Shown piece by piece: positions 3,656-28,433 of a stretch of DNA of 64,000 nucleotides (positions are counted from its first letter, which is position 1; the number at the start of each line of letters is the position of its first letter). The DNA is from Alphaproteobacteria bacterium (lineage in GTDB: Bacteria; Pseudomonadota; Alphaproteobacteria; SP197), in contig OZ219747.1 in assembly GCA_964291265.2 (NCBI GenBank), positions 3,680,001 through 3,744,000 on the forward strand, read 5' to 3'. The notes under the pieces were generated by a model. The model was not told where the DNA came from, did not search any database, and saw only the letters and a program-made list of their open reading frames with translations. The translations under genes were made by a program, and so were the position numbers.

Positions 3656-4401
3656 CACTTCCACCGACACTGGACAGCCGTCCCGATCGCACAGAAGGCC
3701 GAACTCGATCTGCAGCTTGCCCTTCTTGCCATCCCGGGAATGACCCCTCCTCGCCAGGGGGCACGCTCTCCCCTCCATCCACACTGAAGTCAGGTCATGG
3801 AGCACCAGGCAGCCCTCTTCGAGGCGCCGCTTCGCCAGGGACCGCTCGATCCTCTCCTGACGCTCCAGGAGCCAGTCCATGGCGCCGTAGAGGGCGTCCT
3901 CGTCCATCTCCGCATCGAGGACCTCGCCCAGGGTGCTGACCGCTGTGGCCAGCTTCGAAGCGGGCTCGAGGATGCGTGCCACGATCATGGCCAGGACCTG
4001 ATCGCGCTCAGGCGAGGGCTTCGGGTCGATCAACCTGTCCAGTCCCAGCTTCTTCAGGGTTCCCAGCACCGCGGCGACATGCCCGTGGGGAAGGGAGCGG
4101 ACGATGTCGAAGGCATCGTCGAGATGTCGGACTGCTGTTCCTCCCTTGAGGAGGATGCGCAATCCCTCGACGAGAGTGGGGGACCACTTGGAGAGGTTGG
4201 CGATGGTGCGCTTCTTGACCTTTCCGTTTTCGTGATAGGACTCGCGGAGCAGGATGGCGGGCGGCGAGGAGCGGTTGGGGACGGCTTCGATGTACGTGGC
4301 CACCGTACATGGGTACGTTGTGAGGCCCGATAAATCCAGCAAACCGCGCAATATCAATGAGTTGACGCGACTGTCAGCTGGAAAGCGTGCGGAACTTCGG
4401 G
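3650..4401 (-). mobile_element. IS1634-family element, 5' remnant (start codon ACG, truncated)
   Basis: YIEAVPNRSSPPAILLRESY..KRTIANLS..LVLHDLTSVWMEG..GHSRDGKKGKLQIEFGLLCD; terminus CCCGAAGTTCC (minus strand) at 4401-4391. Confidence 0.8.
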
Positions 4402-4415
4402 CTCATCGTAACTAC

Positions 4416-7154: not shown

Positions 7155-9573
7155 CTGCCCATCGGACACATTTCGCGCTCGACTCGCTGATTCCTTTGCG
7201 CTATGGTCGGGCGCATGGACGACCCTGTTTCGATTCCGAGCGCGCTTTCCTCGCCACAAGGCATGGCGAAGTTGTCGCGGATTCTGGCGCAGCCGGAGGT
7301 CTCACGTGCCGAGATCGGCCGCAGGGTATGCGACGCTTTCGGCTTTGTTGACTTTCGCGGGCGACCGCAGGTCACGAGTTGCCTTTGTTGCCCTTCGCCG
7401 TCTTGAGCGGGCGGGCAGGATCGTTCTTCCTTCGCCCCGCCGTGGCGGCGGCCGGGGTGCCGTGGCTCGCAGGGAGGTGGCGGTTGCCGAGCCTGTGGGT
7501 CTTCCGGCGAGCGCCGGTGCGGCCTGAGGGCCTTGAGCTTGTCCGGGTCGAGGGATCGGAGCTTCGGCTGATCTTCAACGAGCTGATGGCGTCGGAGCAT
7601 CCGCGCAGCGCCCGTCTTCACGTCGGCCGTCAGCTGCGCTACCTGATCGGATCGTCGCATGGCTGGCTCGGCGGGTTCCTGTTTGCTCCGGCGACGCGGG
7701 TCCTGGCGGCGCGGGATGCCTGGCTTGGCTGGGACGATGCGAGCCGCGAGCGGCATCTCGACGAGGTGATCGGTCTGGCGCGATTCCTGATCCGTCCATC
7801 CGTCTGTGTACGTTATCTTGCGTCGCGGGTCCTGGGCATGGCGGCCCGGCGCTTAGGTGGTGACTTTGCGGCGGCCTATGGCATCCGTCCGGTTCTGGCC
7901 CTTGACCTTTGTCGCGCCGGAGTATCGGGGCAGTTGCTTCCTGGCGGCCGGCTGGCGCTGTGTCGGTGAGACCACCGGGCGCCGGCTTCGTGACGGCGTG
8001 GCGGAACCGGCGAAGCGCATCCTTCTGCTGCCGCTGGCCTCGGACTGGGACACCTGCCTGGAGGCGCGGCGCGTCCTGGCGCCCGGGGACGGCCTTGACA
8101 GCGCGGCCTGGGCAGAGAACGAATTCGGCGCCGCGCCCTCAGGAGACGCCCGCCTGACGCAGCGGCTTGTGCGCAGTGCCGAGGTTCAGGCCCGGTCACC
8201 GACGAAGACATTCTTCGCTGCGGCGGCTGGCTGCGGAGCGACGGTGAAGGGATACGACAGGATGATCGAGCATCCGGACTACGACGCGGTCTGTGCGTCC
8301 ACCATCATCGGGGGGCATCGCGAACGGACCCTGCGGCGGATGCAGGGCCAGGCGCTGTCGCTTCTGGTGCAGGACGGCACGGACCTCAACTTCGCGACCC
8401 GCCAGGGTTGCGAAGGCCTGGGGATGATCGGCTGCAACACGGGGTCTTCGGGGACGTCGGGCCTGCACCTGCACACGACCTTTGCCGTGAGCGGCGACGG
8501 GGTTCCCCTCGGCGTTGTCAACCTTGAGTTCGACGCCCCGGACGGCGGGGACGACCGGGATCGTCCGGTGGAGGAGCGCAAGACCGGACGGTGGCTGCGC
8601 GGCCTTCGCCACAGCATCGCGGCGGCGAAGGAACTGGACGGGGTGAAGGCCGTGGCGGTGATGGACCGCGAAGGGGACGCGTTCGATGTGCTCCACGAAC
8701 ACCGTGCGGCGGGCTGCCGCCGTCTGGCGCTGCTGGTGCGGGCGCGCCATGACCGCAGCTTCGGCCGCGGCCGGCCCAAGCTGTTCGAGCGTGTGCGCAC
8801 GGCGCCGGAAGGCGGACAGTTCTCCCTCACGGTGGAGCGATTGTCGGGGCGACGTTCGACAGGGGCGCAGAAGGCCTCCGTCGGGCGAGCGAGGCGCCAG
8901 GCGCAGGTGAGCCTGCGCTGGCTGACACGCGAGATCCCGCCGCCTGCACACACAAGGGCGCACTTCGGAGCGCAGCCGGTGGTGCTGACCGCGATCCATG
9001 CCGGGGAGGTGGACAGGCCCGACGACGGGTCACAACCGGTGTCGTGGACCCTGCTCACGACCCTGCCTGTCACGAGCCTGCACCAGGCCCGCGAGGTGGT
9101 GCGGCTCTACGGGTTGAGGTGGCGGATCGAGGACTGGCACAGGATCCTCAAGTCGGGCTGCAAGGTGGAGACGATCGCGCATCGTACCGGGGGACGCATC
9201 GAACGGGCCGTGGCCATCAACGCGGTGATGGCCTGGCGCATCGCCGCTCTCACCCACCTGGCGCGAACGGAACCGGAGCTTCCGGCAAGGACCGCATTCA
9301 CCGACATCGAACTGGCGCTGCTGAAAGACTTCGCGCATGTCCGCAAGCTGCCGCCGCCCGAGGATCTCTCAGCGGCATTCCGCCTCGTGGCGACGATGGG
9401 CGGATACCTGAACCGCAGCAAGGACGGCCCGCCCGGCGCGGAGATCACCTGGAACGGCCAGGCTGCGCTGTCGTTCACGGCGTGGATGCTGGGTCACAGT
9501 GTCGATGCCGGGGACGACAGCGCCGTGCGGCAACACATCAGCTAGCCAGACGGCATTTGTGGGCAATGGGCAG
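7155..9573 (+). mobile_element. IS4-family (IS50/Tn5-like) element
   Basis: Ends CTGCCCAT.. / ..ATGGGCAG; 8-bp TSD CCCCCGGT at 7147-7154 and 9574-9581. Confidence 0.9.
7204..9545 (+). pseudogene. DUF4338-fused IS4/Tn5-like transposase, about 3 frameshifts in the N-terminal part
   Basis: DUF4338 motifs GRQLRYLI..ARDAWLGW..RFLIRP..LASRVL..TFV..GSCFLAAGW; Tn5-like WAENEFG..GDARLTQRL, VQDGTDLNF, MDREGD, YGLRWRIEDWHRILKSGCKVE, GGYLNRSKDGPPG. Confidence 0.85.
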
Positions 9574-11110: not shown

Positions 11111-11678
11111 CGGGATCCTGCCCTCCATGCCCGAGCGACAGGGCGGCGTTCGGCCGCTGGCCGCCCGCCTCGGCGCTGCAACCTTCGAGACTGTCGAGCC
11201 GCCCGCGCCGCTCTTCCCGAAAGCGCGGCGGTTCTTGGCCGAAGCGGTATCGACCGCCCGCGAATGCCGCCCATTTGCGTTGCTGAATCGGCGCCCTTGA
11301 CGTCGCTATGCCCGAGGCGGGGCTGATTGCCGATGCAAGACGGCACGATTGGGAACCGGACTTCGTTGTGGGCCAGGGGCCGCCATACAAGCCTTCAGAA
11401 CCCGTCCAGGAGTCGCTGCTTGGGGCCCGGCGCATCCGGATGGCAGCCGTTCCGTTCCGCAACGACGGAAGCACAGGCGGACAGTCCCTTCGCAAGGACG
11501 ATATTGCTTTGTGCGCCCGCGCCTTCGCGCACGGCGACGATCCTCTCGTCCTTTGCGTCTGGATGGGGCATGAGGGCGAAGGCGAGGACTGGAAATGCAT
11601 CCTCAACCGGTGACAATCACCACCAGTCACCGCGTGACCGAACGCTTGCGACGACGAGAAAAGGAGGAGGGCGCCGCC

Positions 11679-13397
11679 ATGAACGTGTCCGACGGATTCA
11701 GGGCGTGGAAGGACAAACACGAAACGCCGGCCTATCACACCATTCCGTCCGCCCTGCCCGAACGGGCCGCCGGAGGTCCGGTGATCAGCGACACCATGGT
11801 GCCCATGCGCGACGGCATCGAACTGGCAACGGACATCTATCTTCCTGCCGGTGACGGCCCCTTCCCGGCCATCCTCACGCGCATGCCCTACGGCAAGACG
11901 GAACCTTACTGTTTCATGCCGGCCATCGCCCGACATTGGGTGCGCATGGGCTATGCAGCCGTGGTCCAGGACGTGCGGGGCAAGTGGGGATCAGGGGGTT
12001 GTTTCGAACCCAATCTTGCCGACAACGAGGTCCCTGACGGCTACGACACCATCACCTGGATCGCCGGCGAAGCATGGTCAGACGGCCGGGTCGGCATGTG
12101 GGGCGAGAGCTATTTCGGTTTTACCAGCTATGCCGGAGCCGTGAGCGGCCATCCGGCCCTGCGGTGCGTTGCGCCCGGCGACATCTCCCTTGATCGCTAT
12201 CGCGCCACCATGCGCTACGGCTGCCTGCAACTGAACACGGTAGGAACCTGGGCGATCTCGATGACCGACCAGACCTACCAGGATCTCTCCCGGCTGGACT
12301 ACTGGCACCTTCCGCTGGCCGACATGGCCAACGCGGCCGGCATTCCGTCGTGCTACTTCGACGAACTCATCGCCAATCCCCTGCCCTCCCGGTTCTGGAA
12401 CCGGCACAGCCTCCTTGCCGGATACGAGAGCATCCACATCCCCGTGCTGCACTGGGGCGGCTGGTACGACAATTACCTCGGTCCCACCATTGCCGACTGG
12501 CGCACCATGGAGAAACACAACCGCGCCGCCGGCAACCAGCATCTCTTCATCGGTCCCTGGGACCACGAGGGCACGGCCGACCGCTGCCACAGGGTCGGCC
12601 TGTTGCCTGTCAACTCCAGCACGGCCGAGGTCAAGTGGGACACCTTCATCACCTTCTTCGACCGCTATCTCAAGGGCGACGAAAACGGGTTCGGCGAGAC
12701 CGGCATCATTCGCTACTATGTCATGGGTCGGGACATCTGGCGTGATGCCGGGTCATGGCCGCCCCGGGAGTGCCGGGAACAGCGGTTCTACCTGAGGTCT
12801 ACCGACTCCCTGCGTCTTGCCCACGATCCTCCCGGCAGCGAACCGGCGACGAGCTTTCGCTACGACCCCGCCGATCCGGTCGCCGAGACACTGGCCTACG
12901 ACTGCTGGTCCCTGGCGGGGCAGATGGGAGACCGGCGCGAGATCCACGAACGTCAGGATGTTCTCGTCTACGTGACGGAACCATTCGCCGACGAACTGGA
13001 ACTGACAGGTCCCATCTCGGCTCACATCTTCTTCTCCAGCAGTGCGGTGGATACGGATGTCACTGTGGCACTCGCCGATGTGGCCGAAGACGGCAGCGCC
13101 AATCTCATACAGGACGGCATCCTGCGTTGCCGATTCCGCAACGGGACAGAACGGGAGGAGCTGATGGTGCCGGGAGAAGTCCAGGAGCTCGACATCGACC
13201 TCTGGTCAACCAGTTATGCGCTCGCTCCCGGACACCGTCTCGCCGTCGAGATCTCGTCCAGCAACTTCAACCGCTACGACCGCAATCTCAACACCGGCGA
13301 ACCGTTCGGTCAGGGCGCCACCCCCGTCGTCGCAACGCAGACTGTCTTCCACGATACCTGCCGGGCCTCCTGCATCACCGTGACCGTCCACGCCTGA
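11679..13397 (+). CDS. CocE/NonD family serine hydrolase
   Basis: MVPMRDGIELATDIY, RMPYGK, QDVRGKWGSGG, GMWGESY, GGWYD, GPWDH, ISSSNFNRYDRNLNTG; GGAGG RBS. Confidence 0.9.
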   Translation: MNVSDGFRAWKDKHETPAYHTIPSALPERAAGGPVISDTMVPMRDGIELATDIYLPAGDGPFPAILTRMPYGKTEPYCFMPAIARHWVRMGYAAVVQDVRGKWGSGGCFEPNLADNEVPDGYDTITWIAGEAWSDGRVGMWGESYFGFTSYAGAVSGHPALRCVAPGDISLDRYRATMRYGCLQLNTVGTWAISMTDQTYQDLSRLDYWHLPLADMANAAGIPSCYFDELIANPLPSRFWNRHSLLAGYESIHIPVLHWGGWYDNYLGPTIADWRTMEKHNRAAGNQHLFIGPWDHEGTADRCHRVGLLPVNSSTAEVKWDTFITFFDRYLKGDENGFGETGIIRYYVMGRDIWRDAGSWPPRECREQRFYLRSTDSLRLAHDPPGSEPATSFRYDPADPVAETLAYDCWSLAGQMGDRREIHERQDVLVYVTEPFADELELTGPISAHIFFSSSAVDTDVTVALADVAEDGSANLIQDGILRCRFRNGTEREELMVPGEVQELDIDLWSTSYALAPGHRLAVEISSSNFNRYDRNLNTGEPFGQGATPVVATQTVFHDTCRASCITVTVHA

Positions 13398-13558
13398 GTC
13401 CCTCCAGCTGGAGATGACGGCAGGCAGTTCGTGGTCAGGGGTGGCGATCAACGCGCCGCCCCATCGAAGCGGCCGCAGGGACAAGCATCGTGACAGGCGC
13501 CCTGTTCCGTCGTGATCGTCGGCATTCCGGCACCGGTCAGCCGCTTCGAGGCTGCCGG

Positions 13559-14749
13559 TCAGGATACCGTGTCGCTTGTGAGCCTGCTGGCTACCCACCA
13601 GGCGACATGGCGATTGTGCTGTTCGTGACGGGAAAGCGGCCCAGGCGAGGCCCGACCACTATCAAGGGCCTTCTGGATCGCCGCATTGGCGGGGGTATCT
13701 TCGTCGTTGAAGCGGTGGAAGAACCTCTCGAAACGATCAAGCCGCGCCTCGAAGTCCGTCAGAAGGCGGGCGCTTTCCGGGACCAGAAGATCGACCTCCA
13801 TGTGTGAACGGCCGACATCGAGCGGAAGAAAGCGGATCATGATGCCACAGTCGGGCTGCAGGTAGATGAGGTAGTTCGGCAGGACGTAGAACAGTACGAA
13901 GTGAGTGCGGTGGAATGTGTCGAGGTCATCGAGCGGCTCGAAGTAGCACCCTGGCATGACCCTGATCCCGTCGGCCAGAGTCTCAAGACTTTCCTCGCGC
14001 GCCGGACTCCACTGCAGTATCCAGTCGTCGCCACAGGTCGTACCGGCTCTGTCTCCAGGGAAGACGGTCTGGAAGGTCTCGGGGTGCAACCCTTCGTGGT
14101 GGTAGCATTCGCCGTTGTCCTGCATCACCTTCCAGCCCCAGGGAACCTCTCCGAGGTTCAGGGTGCGTGCGGTGAACCAGCTGTCGAGACCGTAGGGACG
14201 GAGCGTCTCCTCGAGACCCGCCAGGCGAGGTGCGAGAGAACCGGCGCGACCATCGAGATTGACGAAAACGAACCCGTGCCAGACCTCGAAGGAGAGTTCT
14301 TCCAGGCGGGTGGCCGCAGCATCGAATTCGGGATGGGATTCCATGCCCGGCGCCCGGCGCAGACATCCGTCGAGGCCGTAGACCCAGGCGTGATAGGGGC
14401 AGGTGATGATGGCCTTGCGCCCCTTCCCCTCAAGGACCTTCATCCAACGGTGACGGCAGATGTTCGCAAAGATCCTGAGACACCCCTTGTGGTCTCGGAC
14501 CATGGCGACCGGTGTGCCGACGATTTCGCGGGCAACGTAACTGCCCGGTTCGCGGACTTCGTCGGCCCGGCCGACAGCGATCCATCCCGCCCGAAAGATC
14601 CTCTCGACTTCAAGGGCATGGATGTCCGGATTGCAGTACGCATCCGCCGGTAGCGTCATCCATCCGGCGTTGCCGTCTGCCGCCATGGCGGACATAGCCC
14701 CGAGAGTGGCGGCCGTTCTGGCTGCCTGAGTGCCTTGGTAACCCTGCAT
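13559..14749 (-). CDS. Rieske non-heme iron oxygenase alpha subunit (choline/carnitine monooxygenase-like)
   Basis: NICRHR..CPYHAWVYGLDG Rieske motif, WKVMQDNGECYHHEGLHP, FNDED; start uncertain. Confidence 0.85.
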   Translation of the reverse strand: MQGYQGTQAARTAATLGAMSAMAADGNAGWMTLPADAYCNPDIHALEVERIFRAGWIAVGRADEVREPGSYVAREIVGTPVAMVRDHKGCLRIFANICRHRWMKVLEGKGRKAIITCPYHAWVYGLDGCLRRAPGMESHPEFDAAATRLEELSFEVWHGFVFVNLDGRAGSLAPRLAGLEETLRPYGLDSWFTARTLNLGEVPWGWKVMQDNGECYHHEGLHPETFQTVFPGDRAGTTCGDDWILQWSPAREESLETLADGIRVMPGCYFEPLDDLDTFHRTHFVLFYVLPNYLIYLQPDCGIMIRFLPLDVGRSHMEVDLLVPESARLLTDFEARLDRFERFFHRFNDEDTPANAAIQKALDSGRASPGPLSRHEQHNRHVAWWVASRLTSDTVS

Positions 14750-15000
14750 TCCTTCCTCCGCGCCGATTATGGCGGGAACGGACCGTCGCGACAATCCCCG
14801 GAGCGCGTGGCCGCCACCTCCCTGATGTTGCCCCACTCTCGAGAACGAACCGGAATCCTCGCCGACGCGTGAAGCGGATGACGACACGGACTTCGCAAAC
14901 ATGAGAGAACGCCTCCTCGGTGTCGGGCTGGCAGTGACGTGGTAGGGTTCGGCGCCCGAACACGGCGAAACGCACACTGTTTCGACCCATGGAGACCGCG

Positions 15001-15788
15001 ATGGACCTCACCGTACTCGATCGCACAGCCGATGCCGGCGCCGCCGCGAACATCCTGCAACGTGGCGGTACCGTTGCCGTGGAGGACCTTGCCCTTGTTG
15101 GGCCTGGCAGACATCAGCGAACTGCGGTCCCGGCTCGATGCCGTCACGCAGCGCCTTCAACCGGGACCCGACGCACCTCTGCGCTGGCGTGTTGTTCATG
15201 GCGTCGGGTGCGATCGAATTCGCGGACCACGACCCTGTCGACGCCGTCGCCGACCGGATCAGCAGCCTGAGGACGATCGAGACCATGCCGGGTGAGACGA
15301 ACCGGGCGCTGCACCGTGACGACACGGTCCACTCCATGGGCATCGTCGGCATGGAGCCGGTCCTCGGCGTCGTGCGGTCCCTGAGCGACTTCACGAGGGA
15401 GAGCGGCGGGACCCGGGTAACTCCCGGCAGCCACCGCTGCATGCGCGCGTGGCATCTGCCGGACATATTCCGCTGGGCCCTTGCCGGAATGCAGAAGGGC
15501 TTGAGCGCTCTTCTGCCTGGGCTTGACATGGCGCGGCGCGGCTGCGCCGGCTGGCTTCGCCCCGAGGAAAACCCGTACCTGACCACTCCACCCGGGATTG
15601 CCGTCCGTCATGGACCCCGCCTGCGGTCGCCGATGGATCAGGCGACCCACGGCTTCGGTGACGACCGGTGCGGCGGCCACCGAGACGTCTGTCCTGCGTG
15701 GACCAGCACACCACCGGAGCCCTCCCGGCGGGCCATCCGCAGCAGAGTGCGTGCCATGGAGGGCGCCAGGGTCGAGGGCGGAGGATGA
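15001..15788 (+). pseudogene. Phytanoyl-CoA dioxygenase (PhyH) family, fragmented
   Basis: LHRDD, LSDFTRESGGTRVTPGSH, GWLRPEENPYL; N-terminus in a different frame, internal deletions. Confidence 0.65.
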
Positions 15789-15915
15789 CGCCGCCGTTGC
15801 CGATGTCGCGGGAAAGCGCCCGGACAGCGACACCCGTTCCTGCCGGTGTTTCAACAGTGCGGCGCCTGAGGTGGACGCATGGACTGTCACGTTCAGGGAG
15901 CTGATGGAGGAGATC

Positions 15916-16728
15916 GTGGACGAAGAACTCTATGACGACAGCTACATCACCTTTCTCGAGGAGGTGTGGGGGAGCGGATATCTCTCCCCCGGGGGACCTG
16001 GCGAGGTCACGCGCATCCTTGAGGGTCTCGACCTGAACGGTGCCCGTGTTCTCGACATCGGTTGCGGATCAGGCGGCATCACGCTCTCGCTGGCGCTCGA
16101 TCACGGCGCGGCCCGCGTCACCGGCATCGACGTCGAGGAACCGGCCTGCAATGCGGCGCGTGAGCGGGCGCGCGAGGCCGGAGCAGCCGACCGGGTGACG
16201 ATACGTCAGGTGGAACCCGGCCCGTTCGAGTTTGCCGACCGGAGCTTTGATGTCGTCTTTTCGAAGGATGCCATCATTCATGTTGCGGACAAGGACATGC
16301 TTGCCCGCGAGGTCTTCCGTGTCCTGGAACCCGGCGGCTGGTTTGCTGCCTCGGACTGGCTGATATCCCACGACAACGCTGCGAGCCCTGCGATGGCACG
16401 CTACATCGAACTCGAGGGGCTCGACTTCTCCATGGCTTCTCCGGACCGCTACGAGGCCGCCCTCAGGGGCGCAGGACTCGTGAACGTGAGCCTGACCAAC
16501 CGCAATCCGTGGTACAGGGACGTGAGCCGCAACGAACTCGACTTTCTGACAGGGGCGGCACGCGCCGGCCTGGCGAGCAGATATGGCAAGGAGTTCGTCG
16601 ACCACCAGGTCGCGACCTGGAGGGCCATGGTAGCGGTTCTCGGGACAGGAGAACACTGTCCCCACCATCTGCGTGGCCAGCGCCCGCACCAAGCCCCCAT
16701 GAGCACAAGCCGGGAGCACGACCTGTGA
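15916..16728 (+). CDS. SAM-dependent N-methyltransferase (phosphoethanolamine / sarcosine-DMG NMT-like)
   Basis: [48 protein letters not shown]. Confidence 0.85.
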
Positions 16729-18806
16729 CACGCGATCCCCGTTACGACATCCTGTTCGAACCACTCGGCATAGGTCCGGTCACCGCGCCCAACAGGTTCT
16801 ACCAGGTGCCCCACTGCAACGGCATGGGCCGGGTCTATCCCAACGCCATGATCGGCATGCGGGGGGCGAAGGCTGAAGGAGGCTGGGGGATCGTCTGCAC
16901 CGAACAGTGTGACTTTCTGGCAAGCGGGGACGCCTCGCCCTACGCCGAGACGAACATGTGGGACGCCAGCGACGAAGTCTATCTGGGCCGCATGGCCGAG
17001 GAGGTGCACCGCTACGGGAGCCTCGCCGGCATCGAACTCGTCCACAACGGTCACGACACTCCGAATCTATACAGCCGGGAGACCCCGATCGGCCCGATGC
17101 ACCGGCCGGCGAACTGGAGCTTTGCGCCGATCCAGGCGCGCGCCATGGATCTCGCGGATATCCGGGAATATCGCCGCGCCCACAGGCAGGCCGCCATGCG
17201 GGCGCGCGACATCGGGTTCGACATTGTCATCGTCTATGCCGGGCACGACGGAACGGTACCGAGCCACTTTCTGGCACGGCGCCACAACCAGCGGACCGAC
17301 GAATATGGGGGCAGTCTCGAGAACAGGTTGCGCCTGTTCCGCGAACTGCTCGAGGAGGCACGCGAGGCGGTCGGCGACACCACTGGAGTCGTGGTGCGCT
17401 TCGCCGTGGACGAACTGATGGGACCGGACGGCCTCGAGTGGCACGCAGAGGGTCGCGAGGCGGTCGAGATGATGGCCGAGCTTCCGGACCTGTGGGATGT
17501 CAACGTCAGCGACTGGACGAACGATTCGAAGACCTCGCGGTTCGCCCCGGAGGGCTACCAGGAAGACTATGTCGCCTTCGTGAAGCAGACGACCACCAAG
17601 CCGGTTTCCACGGTCGGACGCTACACCTCGCCCGACGCCATGGTCTCGGCGATCCGTCGCGGCATCGTCGATCTGATCGGCGCCGCACGACCGTCGATTG
17701 CCGATCCCTTTCTGCCGAAGAAGGTCGAGGAAGGCCGGCTTGAGGACATCCGCGAGTGCATCGGCTGCAATGTCTGCATCGGCTGGACCCAGATGACGGC
17801 GCCGGCACGCTGCACCCAGAATCCGACGTTCGGAGAGGAATGGCGCAAGGACTGGCATCCGGAAACCCTGCCACCCGCAGAAAAGGATGCTCACCTGCTC
17901 GTCGTCGGCGCCGGACCCGCCGGGCTCGAGGCCGCGCGTGCGGCCGGACTGCGGGGATTCCGTGTCACACTGGCCGAAGCGCAGGAAGAACTCGGCGGAC
18001 GAGTCACCCTTGAGAGCCGGCTCCCCGGTCTCGCGGCCTGGGCACGCGTGCGCGACTATCGGATGAGCCAGATCCAGCGCATGCCCAATGTGGACGTCTA
18101 CCGCTCGAGCCGCCTCGACGCAGACCAGATTCTCGAACTTGGAGCCGATCACGTGGCGATTGCGACCGGCGCCACATGGCGGCGCGACGGTTGCGGCCGC
18201 CGCTTCACCTCGGCTGTTCCCGGGAGTGACGCGGCGCACGTCCTCACGCCCGACGACGTACTGGCGGGGCGCCGGCCCACCGGACGCAGGGTGCTGCTGT
18301 TCGACGACGACCACTACTACATGGCCAGCGTGCTCGCAGAACTGTTGAGCGCGGAAGGCTACGACGTAAGCCTGGTGACGCCGACGGCGACGATCGCGGC
18401 CTGGCTCGTCCACACACTGGAACACGAGGCCAACCAGGAGCGCCTTCATGATGCCTGCGTGAACCTCCATGCCAACACGACCCTTCTCGCCGTGGAGACC
18501 GATCAGGCGTTGTTGCATGACGGCTTGCGGAATCGCGAGATGGCGCTGCCGGTCGATGGCGTCATCATGGTCACCGCGCGACTGCCGGAAGACGGCCTCT
18601 ACCATGATGTGGTGCAGGCGCTCGGCGGCAGATCCGATGCCGGCATCCGCACCCTGCGACGGGTAGGCGATTGTCAGGCGCCGGGCATCATCGCGACCGC
18701 GGTCTACGAGGGCCATCGCTATGCCCGCGAACTCGGCGCCGACATCGATCCCCGCGACGTGCCATTCCGCCGCGAACTGCATGTCATAGAACCGGCCATG
18801 ACCTGA
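16725..18806 (+). CDS. Trimethylamine/histamine dehydrogenase-like FMN/4Fe-4S oxidoreductase
   Basis: [22 protein letters not shown] (cysteinyl-FMN), [31 protein letters not shown]; GTGA overlap with methyltransferase. Confidence 0.88.
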
Positions 18807-19496
18807 AGGAGGTGGGGAACCAGTACTCCGGTGGAGACGCCCTCGCGCCGCGATCGCCTGCCCTCCGCCAGGCGTCAACCTGCACCTCCCGTCAGTTCTG
18901 GCGCGCAGTGCGCACGGGCGCAGGCATCGCGGTGTCCATTGTCATGACACTTCCTTCGCGGCAACGTGCGCCAGGTCCTGCAGCGCATCACCGCACGCCT
19001 GACGCAGATCACAACCGGCGGGGGCTTCGTGTTGATCACTGTCCATGCGCTGTCAACAGCCAAGCACAAGCCCCGGCCCTTCAGCCATGAACCGCGCAGA
19101 GCCTGGACGCATTCTTCCGATGCCGGACCCAGGCCAAGGGTCTCGAGCAGGCGCTCACAGACCAGCGCGGCGGTGGCCAGTCGCCAACAGCCCTGACACA
19201 TCGTCTGGTCGCCCGGCGGCGCGTCATGCCTGCGGTTCAGAGACCCGCCGAGGATCGCCACCGGCTTCATCGCCACGCCAGATGCGCCCACCGCGCGCTT
19301 GTCGCAGGACTCCATGCCGCATTCGGCTGATGTACCGCATCGCCGGCGACAATGGGCCGGGTCGAGGCAACGGGCGCACATTGGGCATCGGGTGGAACGC
19401 TCGATTCCGGGAGAGTGCCATGGCGGACAGGCATACGGTCCGGGACGCTCATGCGGGAAGTCGCAAGGAGAGGGTCACGACCTGCGCCGCACCCAC

Positions 19497-20390
19497 TCAT
19501 GGAGTGGCGGGCATCCGGTCGAGACGCCGCGCCACAGCCCGCCTTGCGGCGCGTTCGGCCCTGAGAATGCCGTCGATGAGCGTATGGGTCAGGGGATCGG
19601 CAATGGCATCGAGCATCGCCAGTCCGGCCCTGAGTTCGGCGATGATGACGTCATGGATATCGCGGGCTGTCCTCTCGGCGGCCGCAGGCCCGCTTCCCAT
19701 GATGATGCGTCCATGACAGCGATGGTCCGGCAGACCGCCAAGATCGAGAAGTCGTTCGAGGAGCGCCTCGGCCCGCGCCATGGCCTCGAGGGCCGCACCC
19801 AGCTCACGTTCCGCGTCCTCTCTTCTGCCGGCGCAGCCGAAGACGAGACTGTGCAGGAAGATCTGGCTGACGGCGGAGACCTGCGGGCGAAGGGCCCTGT
19901 TGAGCGCCTCGACCGCCAGCGGCAGGGCACCCGGCTTGGGCAACAGGTGCTTGGCATGACGCGTGCCTTCAGGTGGCTCCTTGCACCATGCGCGGAGTCG
20001 TGCCGCGTGGGCCTCTTCGCTGGCCACAGTCTCCTTCATCAGCGTCCGCATGGCGCCGTCAGGAAACGTCGCCGCAGCTTTCGAGGCACTCCTGGCACAA
20101 CGTTCCGCCTGGACGGCGTCGGCGACGAGCACCGCCCCGGCATCGCGTCCGACCACAATGTCCGACGCCGGCTTGTCGTCCGGGCGGATGCCCTGCGCCG
20201 CCATGGCCTCGACCAGGGATGACGCCTGGCGCATCTGCCGCATCCAGTGATCGTTGGACTTCATGGCCTTCGAGTGACCCCAGGCCCTCAGCATGCGGGA
20301 ATGGAAGAACGACTGGTTGATGGAGTCGATCAGGACGGAAAGGACGGCGCCTGACGCCTTCGCGGTACCGCAGGTCTGTCTTGCCGTCAC
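19497..20390 (-). CDS. Tandem two-domain bacterioferritin-like protein
   Basis: [19 protein letters not shown] and [22 protein letters not shown] resemble Bfr INQYFLHARMFKNWG / ERILFLEGLP; start overlaps glnS stop. Confidence 0.7.
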
Positions 20391-22075
20391 GGCGTGTTGC
20401 GTCGAACGCGCGCCCAGCTGTCGCGCAGACCGATCGTGCGATTGAACACCGGGCGCATGCCGGTTGAGTCGGCATCGACACAGAAGTAGCCCTGGCGTTC
20501 GAACTGCAGGACGTCTCCGGGCGCAGCATCGAGAACGGCGGGTTCAACACGGCAGTCATCGAGGACAACACGGGATTCCGGATTGAGGTCGGCGACGATG
20601 TCGCCACCACTGCCCGGTGTCTCGGTCGTGAAGAGACGATCATAGAGACGGACTTGGGCGCCGACGGCGTGATCGGCCGAGACCCAGTGAAGGGTGCCCC
20701 TGACCTTGCGCCCGTCGGGAGAGCCGCCACCCCTGGTATCCGGATCGTGGGTGCAGCGGAGTTCCACGATGTCGTCTGCTGCATCCTTCACGACTTCCCG
20801 GCAGGTGATGAAGTAGCCGTGGCGCAGGCGGACCTCCCGGCCCGGGGCCAGGCGGAAGAACTTGCGCGGCGGATCCTCCATGAAATCGTCGCGTTCGATC
20901 CAGAGGGTGCGGGCGAAGAGCAACGGGCGGCGCCCCGCCTCTTCGTCCTCGGGGTTGTTGATCGCCTCGAGTTCGTCGGTCTGATCCTCCGGCCACGTCT
21001 CGATCACCACTTTCAACGGCCGCAGCACCGCCATGCGGCGCAATGCGGTGCGGTTGAGATGGGCACGCACACAGTTGTCCAGCATGGCCGGGGCGACGAG
21101 ATTGTCCGCCCGAGAAATCCCGACCCTCGAAATGAACTCGCGGACCGCCTGCGGCGGAATGCCCCGACGTCTCATGCCGCGCAGCGTCGGCATCCTGGGA
21201 TCGTCCCATCCGTCGACATGACCGTCGCGGACAAGGTCGATGAGCACCCGCTTGGACAACACCGTCGAGGCTAGGTTGAGCCTGGCGAACTCGTACTGGC
21301 GGGGTACCCGGGGTACCGGCAGATGGTCGATCAACCAGTCGTAGAGCGGCCGGTGATCCTCGAACTCGAGGGTGCACAGTGAATGGGTCACGCCCTCGAT
21401 GGCATCCGACTGACCGTGCGCGTAGTCATAGGTCGGATAGATGCACCATGTCGTGCCGGTGCGAGGATGGTGCGCGTGAAGAATGCGGTAGAGCACCGGA
21501 TCGCGCATGTTCATGTTGCCCGAGGCCATGTCGATCTTCGCCCGCAGCACGTGCGCGCCATCGGGAAACTCACCGGCCCGCATGCGTCGGAAGAGATCGA
21601 GACTCTCATCGGGCGGACGGTTTCGCCAGGGACTCTCGCGGCCCGGTGCATTCCATGTGCCGCGGGCCTCGCGCATGTCGTCGACCGTTTGGGAATCGAC
21701 AAAGGCATCATCATTGCGGATCAGATGTTCGGCCCAGGCATAGAGCTGCTCGAAGTGGTCCGAAGCGAAATAGAGATGTTCTCCCCACTCGAAGCCGAGC
21801 CAGCGGACATCCTCCTGGATGGCCTCGATGTACTCCTGCTCCTCCCGTACCGGATTGGTGTCATCGAACCTCAGATGACAGCGTCCGGCAAACTCCCCGC
21901 CTATGCCGAAGTTGAGGCACATCGACTTGGCGTGGCCAATGTGGAGGTACCCATTGGGTTCCGGAGGAAACCGCGTGACGACAGTACCGACACGGCCGGC
22001 TGCGACATCGTCGGCGACGATCGCGCGAATGAAGTCATGAGCCCCACCTGGTGCGGGGCTCTCCTCGGCACTCAT
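20387..22075 (-). CDS. glnS: Glutamine--tRNA ligase
   Basis: [58 protein letters not shown]. Confidence 0.95.
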
Positions 22076-22212
22076 GGCGCGACACTCCTGCGACAACGGT
22101 CTGCTGTGTGCCAAAATCACCCGGGCTTGCCAACCCCGGTCAGTCGACGAAGCACCCGGTCACTGCTCCCTGCTCCCGGAAACGGCGTGTGGTGTCAGGT
22201 TGCCGCCACTCC

Positions 22213-22857
22213 TCACCCGTGGCGCTCGAGGCACACCAGGAGGGTTCGGGCCGTGTCGAGATCGGCCGGTCTGTTGACGTTGAAGAAGGGATCCACCGGC
22301 TGGGCGCTGAACGATGCTTCGGCCACCCGGTAACGACCGGTCCAGGCGTCGATCTTGCGCACGCCATCGATGATCAAGGCCTGGCGCAACTCGTTTCGCA
22401 GGCGAACCGGCCACAGGCCAACCACCGGATGGCGTCTGCCAGCGGAGGCGGCGCAGGCCATGTCGGCACCGGTCTCCTTCACCGCCGCGAACAGTCTCTC
22501 GACCAGGTCGATGGGCAGGAACGGCGTGTCCGTGGGCACGGTGACGACCCAGTTCAGACCAGGAACATTGGCTACGGTCCAGTCGAGTCCTGCCAGCACC
22601 CCGGCAAGGGGTCCGGGACGCCCCGACAGCATGTCGGGCGCACGTGACATCACGGGCGAATCGACAGATGAGGCGTCGTCATTGACATTGAGCGCCATCA
22701 AGCGCACCTGGGGACGCAAGCGGGCGATCACGTGATCGAGAAGGCTGCGGCCACCGAGGTCCAGCGTGCCCTTGTCCCTGCCGCCCATGCGTCGCGCCAG
22801 TCCCCCGGCAAGCACCGTCCCGGCCACGTCATTGCGCACCTCCGACACCTCCGTCAT
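22213..22857 (-). CDS. mobA: Molybdenum cofactor guanylyltransferase
   Basis: LAGGLARRMGGRDKG, GPLAGVLAGL, VPTDTPFLP, DPFFNVNRPADL. Confidence 0.92.
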   Translation of the reverse strand: MTEVSEVRNDVAGTVLAGGLARRMGGRDKGTLDLGGRSLLDHVIARLRPQVRLMALNVNDDASSVDSPVMSRAPDMLSGRPGPLAGVLAGLDWTVANVPGLNWVVTVPTDTPFLPIDLVERLFAAVKETGADMACAASAGRRHPVVGLWPVRLRNELRQALIIDGVRKIDAWTGRYRVAEASFSAQPVDPFFNVNRPADLDTARTLLVCLERHG

Positions 22858-23702
22858 CCCCCTACGGGATCCGGAACGGCCAGGTCATCCCAGCACACGC
22901 GATGCGCGCCTGCAGCCACCATGAACCGCTTGCCACGCAGGCGGCCGATGAGCGTCATGTCGACCTGGCGGGCGAGTTCGACACCCCATGCCGTGAACCC
23001 TGAACGGGAGACCAGGACCGGAATGTTCATCCGTGCCGTCTTGATCACCATTTCGCTGGTCAGCCGGCCGGTCGTGTAAAACAGCTTGCCGGCAGCCGTA
23101 ATGTCCTCGAGGGCCATGTAGCCTGCAATTTTGTCCACGGCGTTGTGCCGGCCGACATCCTCCATGTAGACCAGCGGACGGTCACCCTCGCAGAGTACAC
23201 AGCCGTGGATGGCGCCGGCCTTGAGATAGAGACTGGGCGTCGCCGTGATCGTCTTCGCGAGGACATGAAGCCACGCCGTGTGAACAACCGCATTCCTGTC
23301 CAGGTGGACGGTCTCGATTTCATCCATGAGATCACCGAAGACCGTGCCCTGGGCACATCCCGACGTCAGTGTGCGTTTCCGCAGCTTTTCCTCGTAGTCG
23401 GTCTGCCGGCAGGTGCGCACGACCAGAGTGGCGGTTTCCTCGTCATGGTCGATTCCGGTGACCTCGCCGATTCCTTCCAGCATCCCCTGGTTCAGCAGAT
23501 AACCCACGGCCAGGCAGTCCGGGAAATCCCCGATCGTCATCATGGTGACGATTTCCTGATCGTTGAGAAACAGCGTCAGGGGAGTCTCCACGGTCACGTC
23601 CCGATCGATTCGGTTGCCATCCTGGTCGATGCCGGACACCGAACGCGTCAGACGGGAATCCTCGGGGTTCGGCCTGAGAAGGTAGGGCGTCCCTGCCGTC
23701 AT
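22854..23702 (-). CDS. fdhD: Formate dehydrogenase accessory sulfurtransferase
   Basis: VETPLTLFLN, TSGCAQGT, GAIHGC, EDVGRHNAVDK, TGRLTSEMVIK. Confidence 0.92.
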   Translation of the reverse strand: MTAGTPYLLRPNPEDSRLTRSVSGIDQDGNRIDRDVTVETPLTLFLNDQEIVTMMTIGDFPDCLAVGYLLNQGMLEGIGEVTGIDHDEETATLVVRTCRQTDYEEKLRKRTLTSGCAQGTVFGDLMDEIETVHLDRNAVVHTAWLHVLAKTITATPSLYLKAGAIHGCVLCEGDRPLVYMEDVGRHNAVDKIAGYMALEDITAAGKLFYTTGRLTSEMVIKTARMNIPVLVSRSGFTAWGVELARQVDMTLIGRLRGKRFMVAAGAHRVCWDDLAVPDPVGG

Positions 23703-25354
23703 GAGCCGTACCCGGAGGCGGCCTCGCACCGCGGCAGGGGTGTGTGCCCGCGTATCATGTCAGCTGCCTTCTCGGCGATCATGACTGTCGGCGCATTGGT
23801 GTTTCCCGTCACGATGACCGGCATCACCGAGGCATCGACCACCCTGAGGCCATCGACACCCCGTACTCTCAGCTGATCGTCGACAACCGCCAACGGGTCC
23901 CGCGCCGCCCCCATCCTGCAGGTTCCCGAGACATGATATCCCGACAGGGCGCCGCGGGCGACCGCCCTGAGAATGTCCTCGTCGCTCAGGACGTGTTCCC
24001 CCGGGTCCATCTCGGCTCCGCGAAAGGGAGCCAATGCCGGCTGGTGCGCGATGTCGCGCGCCCACCTGACCGCATCGATGAAGTCCCGCCGGTCCTCCTC
24101 TTCGGCAAGGTAGTTCGGTTCGATGGCGGGATGGGCCCCGGGATCAGCGCTCCTGAGCCTGATGCGTCCGCGCGAACGCGGATGCATCTGGTTGACGTCG
24201 AACTGGAAGCCGTCGATGGCAGTCTTCATGCGGTGACGTCGGCTCTCGGCAATGACCATGGGCGTGAAAAAGACCTGGAATCGCGGGAAGTCCGGCGCTT
24301 CGGCGCCACCCCTGGAAAAGGCGCCTACCGACCAGAAGGGATGGGCTCCAGGGCCCGCCCGCCTGCAGCTGGCAAACCACGAGGCGCCGAGCCAGAGAGC
24401 CATCAGCGGGCGGGTCCAGCGGGCCTGGGTGTCGCGCGGCCGGCGACAGTGGAACCGGACTGGCATGTTGAGATGATCCTGCAGGTCCTGCCCCACTCCC
24501 GGACTCGCCACTCTCACCTCGATTCCGTGCCGGCGCAGGTGTTCCTCCGGACCGATGCCCGACAGCATGAGGAGTTGCGGCGAACCGATGGCGCCCTGAC
24601 AGACGATCACTTCGCCGGACGCATGGACCTCCTCCATGGCGGAACGCCGTCGGTAGCGCACGCCTCTGGCGCGATGCCCCTCGATCATCAGGGACGTGGC
24701 AAGACTTCCGGTGCGGATCTCGAGGTTGGGCCGTGAACCGGCAGGCGAGAGATAGCATCTCGAGATGCTGGAGCGTCGGCCGCCGCGAACGGTGACATCG
24801 AGCAGACCGGCGCCAACCTGACCCGCGCCGTTGAAATCCGGATTCGCCGGCAATCCCGACTGGAGGCAAGCCTCGATGAACGCATGATCGATCGGCAGCG
24901 GCCGCCCTGCCGGTCCGGTCAGCAACGGGCCTGAATCACCGCGCCAGTGATCGCCGCCACCTTCCCTGCTCTCCGCCTTGCGGAAGTAGGGCAGCACATC
25001 GGCCCAGGCCCATCCCTCAAGACCGAGCTGTCTCCAGCGATCGTAATCGGCAGCGTTGCCGCGCATGTAGATCATGCCGTTGATCGCGCTCGACCCCCCG
25101 AGCCCGCGTCCCCGGGGCCAGTGGATCCGGCGGCCGGCGAGATGCGGCTGGGGTTCGGTGAGGTAGCACCAGTCAAAGCGCGGATTGCCGACGGCAAACA
25201 CGTTGGCTGCCGGCATGACGACCCGGAAATCCCTGTTCGTGCCGCCGGCTTCGAGGAGAAGGACGCGGCACGATCTCTCCTCGCTCAAGCGAGAGGCCAG
25301 GACAGATCCGGCCGATCCTCCACCAACGATGATGAAATCGAAGACGTCGACCAC
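23699..25354 (-). CDS. GMC oxidoreductase (choline dehydrogenase-like)
   Basis: FDFIIVGGGSAG, GLGGSSAINGM, SPQLLMLSGIG, YHVSGTCRMG, GNTNAPTVMIAEKAAD. Confidence 0.9.
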   Translation of the reverse strand: MVDVFDFIIVGGGSAGSVLASRLSEERSCRVLLLEAGGTNRDFRVVMPAANVFAVGNPRFDWCYLTEPQPHLAGRRIHWPRGRGLGGSSAINGMIYMRGNAADYDRWRQLGLEGWAWADVLPYFRKAESREGGGDHWRGDSGPLLTGPAGRPLPIDHAFIEACLQSGLPANPDFNGAGQVGAGLLDVTVRGGRRSSISRCYLSPAGSRPNLEIRTGSLATSLMIEGHRARGVRYRRRSAMEEVHASGEVIVCQGAIGSPQLLMLSGIGPEEHLRRHGIEVRVASPGVGQDLQDHLNMPVRFHCRRPRDTQARWTRPLMALWLGASWFASCRRAGPGAHPFWSVGAFSRGGAEAPDFPRFQVFFTPMVIAESRRHRMKTAIDGFQFDVNQMHPRSRGRIRLRSADPGAHPAIEPNYLAEEEDRRDFIDAVRWARDIAHQPALAPFRGAEMDPGEHVLSDEDILRAVARGALSGYHVSGTCRMGAARDPLAVVDDQLRVRGVDGLRVVDASVMPVIVTGNTNAPTVMIAEKAADMIRGHTPLPRCEAASGYGS

Positions 25355-25377
25355 CGATGTCTGCCGCTTGCCACGAC

Positions 25378-26238
25378 CTAGTGGAACGGCCGATCGCCGA
25401 TGACCGTGACACGATGCATCTTGCGATGTCCCGTGAAGCTGGAGGAAGCCAGATGCATGGTGCACCGGTTGTCCCATATCGCCAGATCACCGGGCTTCCA
25501 GGACCGGCGCACCTGGTAGTTGGGGTGTTCCGCGAACTCGCACAGCATTCTCAGGATATGGTCGCTCTCGATTCCCCCGAGGCCCTTGATCTCCTTGGTG
25601 AAGGTTCGATTGACGAACAGTCCCTTCCTTCCGGTTTCCGGGTGAGTGCGCACCACCGGATGTTCCACGGGCGGCAATTCTATGATGTCCTGGGCAAGTT
25701 TGCGGATCCCGCCCTCACCGGCCAGAACCGAGGATCCGAACGACATGTAGTAGTCGTGCACCGCCGTCAGTTCCTCGATCATGTCGCGAACCACCGGCGA
25801 CAGCGCCTCGTAGGCGGCGTGGAGACTCGACCACAGCGTGTCACCTCCTCCTTCCGGTGGCGTCACCTGGCAATGCAGGATCGAGGCCTTGGCAGGGCAT
25901 TCTCGAAAGGTCACGTCAGTGTGCCAGACATCGTTGTAGAGGCTGCCATCGCCGTGCTGCTCGATGACCGTCACTTCAGGCAGGCCCGCAACATTGCCGA
26001 ACACGGGATGGGGCGGTTCAATGTCACCGAAATGTCGCGCAAGGGCGAGATGTTCGGCCGGGCCGATACGCTGGTCCGGGAGAAACACGACAAGGTGGTC
26101 GAGCAGGGTCCGGTGAATCAGGTCGCCCGTGGATGAATCGATTCTTTCGGCCAGGTCGAGGCCATGAATCTCCGCACCGATCACGGGTCCGAGCGGCCGC
26201 ACCTCAACGGAATTCCGGGTCAAGGTCCTTCCCTCCAT
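25378..26238 (-). CDS. TauD/TfdA family Fe(II)/2OG dioxygenase
   Basis: WHTDVTF, GGDTLW, HPVVRTHPETGRK, WDNRCTMH. Confidence 0.9.
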   Translation of the reverse strand: MEGRTLTRNSVEVRPLGPVIGAEIHGLDLAERIDSSTGDLIHRTLLDHLVVFLPDQRIGPAEHLALARHFGDIEPPHPVFGNVAGLPEVTVIEQHGDGSLYNDVWHTDVTFRECPAKASILHCQVTPPEGGGDTLWSSLHAAYEALSPVVRDMIEELTAVHDYYMSFGSSVLAGEGGIRKLAQDIIELPPVEHPVVRTHPETGRKGLFVNRTFTKEIKGLGGIESDHILRMLCEFAEHPNYQVRRSWKPGDLAIWDNRCTMHLASSSFTGHRKMHRVTVIGDRPFH

Positions 26239-26426
26239 CGTCCGCCATCAGTGGATACCCTGCACACGGTCATCGTCAAGACGCGATGCTGGTCAGGCCA
26301 ACCGGCGGTGTGGACCGGCCTCGGGTCAACATCGTTGACGTCGGACCGTCCACGGTACCCGAGTGAGACCTTGTCACGGTTGCAGCAAGAGGTGAAGATG
26401 GAGGTGAACGGCGTGACGGGAGGCTC

Positions 26427-28433
26427 ATGACCGAACGCGAGATCATCCGGACAAGTTGTCCCCGCGACTGCTATGACGGGTGTGGCATCGCCGTGGTCAG
26501 GCGTCACGGCAGGATCACGCGGGTTCTGGGCGATCCCGAACATCCGGTGAGCCGGGGGAGCCTGTGTGGCAAGTGCGCCATTGCCTACAACGGTGTGTGG
26601 CTCGATCCCGAAGCCCGTCTCCTCCATCCCCTGCGTCGGACGGGACCGAAGGGCTCGGGTCTCTTCGAGCGTGTGAGCTGGGAGGAGGCGCTTGACGTCA
26701 TCGCAACACGCCTCGACACCATCATTGCCGAAAGCGACGCCGCCTCCATCCTCCACACGCACTACACCGGCACCTGTTCGGCCCTTGCCAACGCCTTTCC
26801 GGAACGATTCTTCAACCGCATCGGCGCCACCGAGGCCATGCCCGATTCCATCTGCAACAACGCCGGACACCAGGCTCTTCGCTATGTCCTGGGTTCAAGC
26901 GTCAACGGTTTCGATCCCGCAACGGCCAGGGACAGCGCCTGTATCGTCGTCTGGGGCGCCAATCCGGCCCACAGCGCGCCCCATGCCCACAAGCACTGGC
27001 TGAAGGAAGGCCCGGCCAGGATTGTCGTCATCGATCCGGTGCGCCACCTCACGGCCTCCCAGGCCGATATCCATCTGCAGGTCAATCCCGGCAGCGATGC
27101 CGTACTGGCCTTCGGCCTGTGCCACGTTGCCCGCCGCGACGGTCTGCTCGATGACGCCTGGATCACGCACCACGTCAAGGGTTACGAGGAGGTCGAGGAG
27201 GCGATCGCAGCGGCAGATCCGGAATCGACATCCCGCGTGACCGGTGTTCCCGTCAGCCTCATCGAAGAGACCGCGCATCTCTACGCGAAGGGACCGTCCC
27301 TCCTGTGGCTCGGCCAGGGACTGCAGCGCCAGTTCCGCGGCGGCAACATCTTCCGTGCCTGCGCCATGCTTCCCGCGCTGACCGGCAACATGTCAAAACC
27401 CGGCGCTGGGATTCTCTATCTCAACAGCACGCTCGACATCATGGCCCGCAAGGGAGCCACGCCTCCCTTGCCGGAAGCCGGGGAGGCCGGCCCCTCCATC
27501 AGCCAGATGGATGTCCCCGCCGCACTCGAAACGTCGGATCGTTTCCGCGCCTACGTGGTCTGGAACTGCAATCCCCTCGCCTCCAATCCGGCACAGCAGG
27601 TGCTCACCCGGGCGCTGATGCGCGAGGACCTGTTCACGGTGGTCGTCGACTGCTTCGAGACGGATACATCCCGCTACGCCGACATCGTGCTTCCGGCCGC
27701 CTCCTTCCTCGAATTCGACGACGTGAATGCAAGCTACTTCCATCTCCTTCTCGGCGCCCAGGTCCGGTGTGCCGAACCGATGGGCGAGAGTCTGCCCAAC
27801 CAGGAGATCTTCCGCCGCCTCGCCCGGGCCATGGGTCTGCCGGACGCCGAACTCCACCACACCGACCGGGAACTGATCGACGAGGTGCTGGAGGGAAGTG
27901 GAGTGTCCTGGGACGAGTTGACGTCACGCGGCTGGGTTGCAGCCAGCGATGAACCGATGGTGCTGTGGCCCGAGGGCAGGTTTGCGACTCCGTCAGGCAG
28001 GATGGAGATTGCGAGCTCCAGGGCCGAAGCCGACGGTCATCCGCGCGTGCCCGAGGCCGCGGCAGATCCGCCGCCGGCAGAGGGCCGGTTCCGCCTGTTG
28101 AGTCCCGCCGGCCGCTGGCTGATGAATTCCTCGTACGGCAACGATCCGCGCATCGGTGAACTTCTCGGCTCACCGACGGTCACTATCCACCCCGATGATG
28201 CCCGGTCGTGTGATGTCAGCACCGGTGACAAGGTCTCTCTCTCCAATGATGCCGGCTCGCTCACCCTGGTCGCGGTCGTTTCGGACAGCGTGCCGTCGGG
28301 AGTGCTGCTCGCCGACAAGAGCAGGTGGCCCGGACCCGGCGGAGCCAACATCAATCACCTCCACATTCCGCGCAAATCGGACATGGGCGAAAGCACCTGC
28401 GTCCACGGCGTGGAAGTCACCCTGACACGCTGA
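26427..28433 (+). CDS. Mo-bisPGD oxidoreductase (DMSO-reductase superfamily, uncharacterised clade)
   Basis: CPRDCYDGC..C 4Fe-4S, RVSWEEAL, SICNNAG, WGANP, DIVLPAA, IHPDDA. Confidence 0.88.
   Translation: MTEREIIRTSCPRDCYDGCGIAVVRRHGRITRVLGDPEHPVSRGSLCGKCAIAYNGVWLDPEARLLHPLRRTGPKGSGLFERVSWEEALDVIATRLDTIIAESDAASILHTHYTGTCSALANAFPERFFNRIGATEAMPDSICNNAGHQALRYVLGSSVNGFDPATARDSACIVVWGANPAHSAPHAHKHWLKEGPARIVVIDPVRHLTASQADIHLQVNPGSDAVLAFGLCHVARRDGLLDDAWITHHVKGYEEVEEAIAAADPESTSRVTGVPVSLIEETAHLYAKGPSLLWLGQGLQRQFRGGNIFRACAMLPALTGNMSKPGAGILYLNSTLDIMARKGATPPLPEAGEAGPSISQMDVPAALETSDRFRAYVVWNCNPLASNPAQQVLTRALMREDLFTVVVDCFETDTSRYADIVLPAASFLEFDDVNASYFHLLLGAQVRCAEPMGESLPNQEIFRRLARAMGLPDAELHHTDRELIDEVLEGSGVSWDELTSRGWVAASDEPMVLWPEGRFATPSGRMEIASSRAEADGHPRVPEAAADPPPAEGRFRLLSPAGRWLMNSSYGNDPRIGELLGSPTVTIHPDDARSCDVSTGDKVSLSNDAGSLTLVAVVSDSVPSGVLLADKSRWPGPGGANINHLHIPRKSDMGESTCVHGVEVTLTR

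Follow-up and report, generated by a model that had tools for sequence, protein, structure and literature searches.

The question raised by the tandem gene in the window (the whole stretch of alphaproteobacterial DNA analysed here, 64,000 nucleotides in length) is what a bacterioferritin (Bfr) might do when two of its bundles are joined in one chain, both heme methionines are kept, and the ferroxidase ligands are largely gone. Most probably the product is a heme-binding protein that is catalytically dead and forms no cage, and to a fuller reading, built from sequence, structural models and analogy, we give a probability of about one half. According to that reading, a chain of two Bfr bundles, which has lost the diiron ligands and helix E and kept both Met52 residues, would fold as a bacterioferritin-type two-fold pair, with one heme held between the putative ligands M53 and M204; chains would pair through their C-terminal halves into a homodimer without forming a cage, and this homodimer would serve as a soluble heme buffer separate from the iron store formed by Bfr and Bfd. 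The family has lost its diiron ligands, keeps both methionines invariant, is under purifying selection and is retained in genomes without Bfr or Bfd; a role in heme buffering is what we infer.

The reading frame opens with a GTG codon, and the stop of the upstream glnS and the start of the tandem gene overlap in a four-nucleotide GTGA (20387-20390; Table 1). Its translation contains two stretches matching Ferritin PF00210 (E = 1.9e-10) and two matching the bacterioferritin model TIGR00754, the latter under the family cut-off (75 versus 125.55 bits), and the top PDB sequence matches were bacterioferritins. Two plus-strand reading frames that overlap the gene, 19045-19716 and 19299-20222, gave no Pfam match; the former matched related loci only where it overlaps the tandem gene, and was treated as a shadow frame. 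No sigma-70-like promoter was found in 18700-22400.

Table 1. Features of the tandem gene and its surroundings, in window coordinates.
Feature	Coordinates	Strand	Remarks
Tandem bacterioferritin-like protein gene	19497..20390	-	297 aa; dN/dS 0.21-0.36 against 7 orthologues
N-terminal four-helix bundle, residues 1-136	19983..20390	-	Without helix E; ferroxidase ligands left are E127 and H130; R30/R33 equivalents present
Inter-half linker, residues 137-155	19926..19982	-	K147, L149 and P151 conserved
C-terminal four-helix bundle, residues 156-297	19497..19925	-	Without helix E; only E127 left; E128 replaced by R; E56/E60 equivalents present
M53 codon, putative axial heme ligand (counterpart of Met52 in the N-half)	20232..20234	-	Invariant in 44/44 core sequences
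M204 codon, putative axial heme ligand (counterpart of Met52 in the C-half)	19779..19781	-	Invariant in 44/44 core sequences
Predicted homodimer interface, segment 1, residues 201-216	19743..19790	-	Complex model
Predicted homodimer interface, segment 2, residues 262-281	19548..19607	-	Complex model
glnS (glutamine-tRNA ligase), upstream	20387..22120	-	Stop shares 4 nt with the start codon of the tandem gene; context only, not family-wide

A sequence-only reading of this gene had proposed two Bfr-like repeats and called for a ferritin fold, and both were borne out. An AlphaFold2 model built on a 46-row alignment (pLDDT 93.6, pTM 0.90) showed eight long helices arranged in two four-helix bundles, with a linker of some 19 residues between them and helix E absent. 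Fold searches matched the bundles to Bfr singly, with an rmsd of about 1.6 Å over about 133 columns in one search and Z 19.9, rmsd 2.2 and 145 aligned residues in another. PDB entry 9VIW was absent among the fold matches listed, and the ESM Atlas returned generic ferritin clusters only. The modelled chain thus shows a tandem fold of two bacterioferritin bundles, and a fixed mutual arrangement of the two halves is predicted; an antiparallel, Bfr-like packing would be compatible with the pTM of 0.90 and with a crosswise R30/R33-E56/E60 pattern. The halves themselves share 17% identity (23/139). Residues are numbered here after the canonical Bfr of the window's own genome (C2:2500561, with intact ligands and adjoining a bfd-like gene), and the register of the C-half was also set by hhalign (99.6%).

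A homologue search (E up to 0.001) yielded 35 proteins, namely the query and 34 others, all full-length and 41-85% identical, which argues that the reading frame did not arise by chance; deeper members were added from a representative library. Residue counts refer to 44 core rows, obtained from the alignment of 46 by removal of P0044 and P0046, which belong to a subfamily apart that has threonine for methionine in the C-half, and about half of these rows are 78-85% identical, so that they are not independent. When 61 related genomes were surveyed, the gene was present in 24 of the 33 from the window's family and in none of the 28 from other families; across 401 genomes of the phylum, an uninterrupted tandem match occurred only in the window's genome. 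Full-length matches in G119, G244, G099, G353 and G443 were discarded as tandem proteins, as they are adjacent two-gene bfr pairs. Named records were mostly from uncultured Alphaproteobacteria. Against seven of the closest loci, dN/dS for the tandem gene was 0.21-0.36, compared with 0.09-0.14 for glnS and 0.17-0.26 for mobA; this small alphaproteobacterial family is under purifying selection, which answers the concern about neutral decay raised with the first reading.

Further degenerate tandem proteins were encountered. A second Bfr-like family of 320-360 residues occurs in the same lineage (L035:928-2007, L044:967-1995, L052:1390-2463, L053:1444-2403), with threonine at the N-half Met52 position and methionine in the C-half; its neighbours vary (luciferase-like monooxygenase, class II aldolase, HalD-like protein, homocysteine methyltransferase), and it was not found in the window's genome. 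Another tandem subfamily (P0044, P0186-P0190, P0046 and P0047, with one record named Acidobacteriota) has the opposite combination, an N-half methionine and a C-half threonine, and the P0044 group possesses a C-terminal tail resembling helix E. P0074, a very divergent tandem Bfr-like protein of 323 residues, gave no Pfam match.

In the N-half of the query, E18 of Bfr is replaced by L20, E51 by Q52, H54 by Q55 and E94 by A95, and M52 (M53), E127 (E125) and H130 (H128) are kept; in the C-half, E18 is replaced by Q170, E51 by A203, H54 by R206, E94 by H246 and H130 by A282, and M52 (M204) and E127 (E279) are kept. The residues originally read from the sequence (Q-M-R-Q in domain 1, A-M-A-R in domain 2, E18 as L and Q, H130 only in domain 1) were all correct for the query on this numbering, and the loss of ferroxidase ligands extends to the family; throughout the 44 rows, N-halves retain one or two of the six diiron ligands and C-halves none or one, mostly E127, which the query has in both halves. 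H130 was present in 19 of the 44 N-halves. Ferroxidase inactivity has been described for A. baumannii Bfr (PMC11303784) and M. gryphiswaldense Bfr2 (PMC6529640), both of which have suffered fewer ligand losses; by this analogy and from its own residues, the tandem protein would be without ferroxidase activity.

M53 and M204 are each invariant in all 44 rows, which upholds the proposal of a fused pseudo-dimer, two bundles in one chain, with both heme methionines. Only at Q24, F26, S29 and M52 do both halves carry one and the same residue in 42 or more of the 44 rows, and of these only M52 and F26 are fully invariant; F26 is a position which we take to line the heme pocket. Other positions are invariant too, within one half. 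The two-fold network of Bfr involves R30, K33, D56 and E60 (PMC12867745); the N-halves keep the basic pair (R30 in 41/44, R33 in 44/44) and the C-halves the acidic pair (E56 in 41/44, E60 in 44/44), the reciprocal set having been lost. Such a division is what pairing between the two halves would be expected to leave, and the sequences fit that arrangement. [quoted passage not shown]

Whether such a chain could enter a cage was considered next to its other features. The sequence after position 137 has a median length of 7 residues, versus 20 in canonical Bfr; the four-fold core of 24-mers is built from helix E (PMC13168243). Bfr dimers depend on E128, E135 and R61 to stay in the cage, and E128A, R61A and E128R/E135R variants are dimers (PMC3179174); in the tandem family, E128 is arginine in 37/44 C-halves, E135 is arginine in 22/44 N-halves, and the R61 position of the N-half is mostly alanine or valine; the query itself has E128 in its N-half and R61 in its C-half. 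A complex prediction with two chains and two hemes, the hemes being unscored, produced a symmetric homodimer through the C-terminal halves with a score of 0.68, compared with 0.01 for the best of three controls; in a rough calibration, 20 of 30 solved pairs attained the mark applied to this score, as did 1 of 23 single chains. At least 98% of contacts were shared by runs, with pLDDT of at least 85, and the pass may be owed to likeness to a solved complex.

The predicted interface comprises two segments of the C-half (Table 1). Of 27 interface positions, 19 were conserved in 40 or more of the 44 rows, versus 60 of 252 elsewhere, a comparison drawn from the same alignment as the model and thus not independent of it; within the C-half, 16 of 24 interface positions were conserved, versus 2 of the 24 corresponding N-half positions. 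The predicted interface would explain the most conserved surface. In the geometry of Bfr, the helices concerned look towards the lumen of the cage and its three-fold axis, so that dimerization would exclude a cage. We infer that the tandem protein forms no cage, and the model predicts a homodimer in which the conserved C-terminal halves meet.

Among 19 genome loci, the tandem gene follows glnS in 12, with the four-nucleotide overlap in 10 of those; in the other seven it precedes an enoyl-CoA hydratase gene, after which genes for a CoA-binding protein and a Cys/Met PLP enzyme usually come, and in six of the seven it is divergent from rplM. The rplM arrangement was mostly repeated in metagenome loci and further genome loci. 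The coupling to glnS suggested at the outset therefore stands as a GTGA overlap in the window, and was set aside as a functional feature of the family because only part of the family has it. No link to heme or iron was found among neighbouring genes in the loci examined. Gene order is kept in close relatives across 11595-18806 (CocE-like hydrolase, Rieske oxygenase, methyltransferase, flavin oxidoreductase) and 22213-28433 (mobA, fdhD, GMC oxidoreductase, TauD-like dioxygenase, molybdopterin oxidoreductase); some of these labels are Pfam-based, and the remainder are tentative ones taken from motifs. The stretch between the 3' end of the tandem gene and the convergent flavin oxidoreductase gene (18807-19496) ranges from about 280 to 5500 bp among relatives, which suggests an insertion site.

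The window's genome contains an intact bfr-bfd pair. Canonical Bfr was found in 18 of 24 carriers and was absent from six, whose completeness is 90-100% (including 97, 99 and 100%). In a direct search of ten carriers, Bfr came with a neighbouring bfd in five and neither was found in the other five, all of which had ferrochelatase. In two of five carriers checked, the tandem gene was the sole PF00210 match. Within family f1, whose genomes are kin and not independent, the gene is present in 18 of 19 Bfr-bearing and 6 of 14 Bfr-less genomes; as 18 of 19 carry it where Bfr is present and 8 of 14 lack it where Bfr is absent, both tend to be lost together, a pattern that would equally suit a gene tied to Bfr. 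The encapsulin domain PF04454 was found in none of five genomes searched (control 3/14).

These observations bear on what else the protein might be. With the same structure, a bis-methionine heme could be a fixed redox cofactor, and the protein a soluble b-type electron carrier or a redox or heme sensor acting with some partner. The heme of Bfr does serve electron transfer (PMC11303784), and conserved patches at the linker and at the A-B loop of the N-half could dock a partner; even so, we regard this role as unlikely, since the Bfd site is poorly conserved (E81 is gone from most N-halves and most C-halves, and N70 and Q72 have been replaced), Bfd was found in 0/5 Bfr-less carriers (control 5/5), and no redox or regulatory neighbour is conserved in the loci examined. 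Slightly less probable again is a protein that binds no heme and keeps its methionines for packing of the pseudo-dimer, as a scaffold or for another ligand. Such a reading is favoured by the sister lineages, in which threonine replaces one methionine (in the C-half of P0044, P0046, P0187 and P0188 and in the N-half of L035-type proteins), so that the tandem fold is able to persist without a bis-methionine site; it is favoured as well by Hend-dFTN, which has both methionines and was reported without heme in E. coli (10.64898/2026.08.25.747088), and by the positions invariant within a single half. It is opposed by the invariance of M52 in two halves that otherwise share almost nothing, and by the loss of M52 in 7 of 8 heme-less Bfr1-type subunits sampled.

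Ferroxidase-less heme subunits are known (PMC6529640, PMC11303784, PMC12867745), and as Bfr accompanies the tandem gene in the window's genome and in most carriers, the chain might be a pre-assembled heme-only subunit pair that co-assembles with canonical Bfr cages in the style of Bfr2 or A. baumannii Bfr. We consider this improbable, and the regulatory cage subunit first envisaged is not supported, because helix E is missing, the cage bridges are substituted, and the three-fold region of the C-half is occupied in the predicted dimer, which buries the cage face; moreover, six of 24 carriers are without canonical Bfr, which makes an obligate cage role unlikely, the resident Bfr already has both functions, and the tandem gene never adjoined bfr in the loci examined. 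A decaying, functionless duplicate is largely refuted by the dN/dS values and has very little left to recommend it: values lie above those of glnS, and three of the 24 copies seem to be cut short or to have lost their frame (L018, L019, L092), whereas the values are near those of mobA, and frames are intact with invariant motifs down to 39-41% identity. The break in L019 may be an assembly error, and protein record P0033 holds the intact sequence; in L018, the tandem, GMC and CocE-like genes all look broken (4233-4672, 8001-8321 and 13533-14180), which suggests local genome decay.

In quick trees, all tandem halves lay on one side of a branch from single-domain Bfr, Bfr1 and Bfr2 (support 98-99). 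Fusion of an adjacent bfr1-bfr2 pair was rejected, as a tree joining N-halves with Bfr1 gave p-AU 0.017 (40 rows, quick LG+G4; long branches limit this test). The trees fit internal duplication of an already degenerate bfr, and long-branch attraction may contribute to that result. P0060 and P0070 are Bfr-like proteins of one domain that lack a ferroxidase centre and have E128Q and E135R; in the quick trees, no other single-domain branch lies as close to the tandem proteins. The P0044-type subfamily is possibly near the ancestor of the family studied here. Bfr1-bfr2 neighbours that share a reading frame, with 9-12 nt between them and bfd alongside, occur in L023, L024 and L025, and P0195, on one short contig, is a 322-residue fusion of Bfr1 and Bfr2 types, either natural or an artefact. 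When longer Bfr-containing proteins were sought, no DFLP was seen among the 11 of 30 hits examined, which consisted of one Bfr1-Bfr2 fusion and otherwise of single Bfr domains with unrelated extensions.

Returning to the heme-binding homodimer, we tentatively extend it to an independently evolved pseudoenzyme class, in which a fused Bfr dimer without catalysis or cage would be a dedicated cytoplasmic heme store or chaperone, with the homodimer capping the heme pocket, and in some genomes the sole ferritin-family protein. If that is true, tandem bacterioferritins arose more than once, as encapsulin ferroxidase, as cage and as pseudoenzyme. If heme is bound, a natural protein has separated the Bfr heme site from iron oxidation and the cage, so that its own role in heme handling becomes testable, and a cage-free bis-methionine protein with two separately mutable halves offers a convenient model; if no heme is bound, the family is a lineage-restricted pseudo-ferritin of modest interest.

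The tandem architecture itself has already been described, in DFLPs and in Asgard double ferritins (dFTNs), whose characterised members have at least one diiron site left. As reported for DFLPs (TmDFLP, PDB 9VIW), both Met52 equivalents are fully conserved, heme content is only about 3-8%, and the proteins oxidise iron and are dimers, not cages; the full diiron motif is found in 79.6% of N-domains, with about 20% deviating, and an encapsulin targeting peptide in 56 of 157 (10.1101/2025.09.13.676036). So low a heme content in proteins with both methionines counts against the heme-binding reading. The family described here resembles them in having two Bfr-derived bundles per chain, both Met52 equivalents, and a cage-free homodimer, measured for DFLP and predicted here. 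Unlike TmDFLP, an active ferroxidase, neither half has more than two of six ligands, and unlike many DFLPs, a C-terminal targeting peptide was found in 0 of 46 sequences. The family profile matched classic Bfr much better than 9VIW (E = 1.2e-14 versus 7.1e-5; 1.3e-23 versus 2.8e-10 in a second search); because of this, and as ferroxidase and encapsulin features are absent, the tandem family probably stems from a duplication separate from that of the DFLPs. The literature outside subscription papers yielded no account of a tandem Bfr in which both centres are gone, and the list of 157 DFLPs, which includes deviant motifs, could hold members. The Asgard/TACK dFTNs have both diiron sites intact, a relocated short helix and a 12-chain cage in the account consulted (10.64898/2026.08.25.747088); tandem ferritin domains, pseudo-two-fold symmetry and paired methionines are shared with them, whereas the diiron sites, the short helix after helix 1 and the 12-chain cage were not seen here.

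Measured against the bacterioferritins of TIGR00754, the bundle and, at the sequence level, Met52 are present, and the diiron ligands, helix E and cage bridges are not. A. baumannii Bfr (9bts_A) was the top PDB match of the core profile, and it and M. gryphiswaldense Bfr2 likewise keep Met52 and have lost the ferroxidase centre; those proteins are single-domain, retain helix E as well as the Bfd site, and co-assemble with a subunit that has ferroxidase activity, whereas here the chain is a single tandem whose cage determinants are lost. Engineered Bfr dimers (E128R/E135R, PDB 3E2C; R61A) differ in being two separate chains altered at interface positions only, and the same positions are naturally substituted in the tandem protein, split over its two halves.
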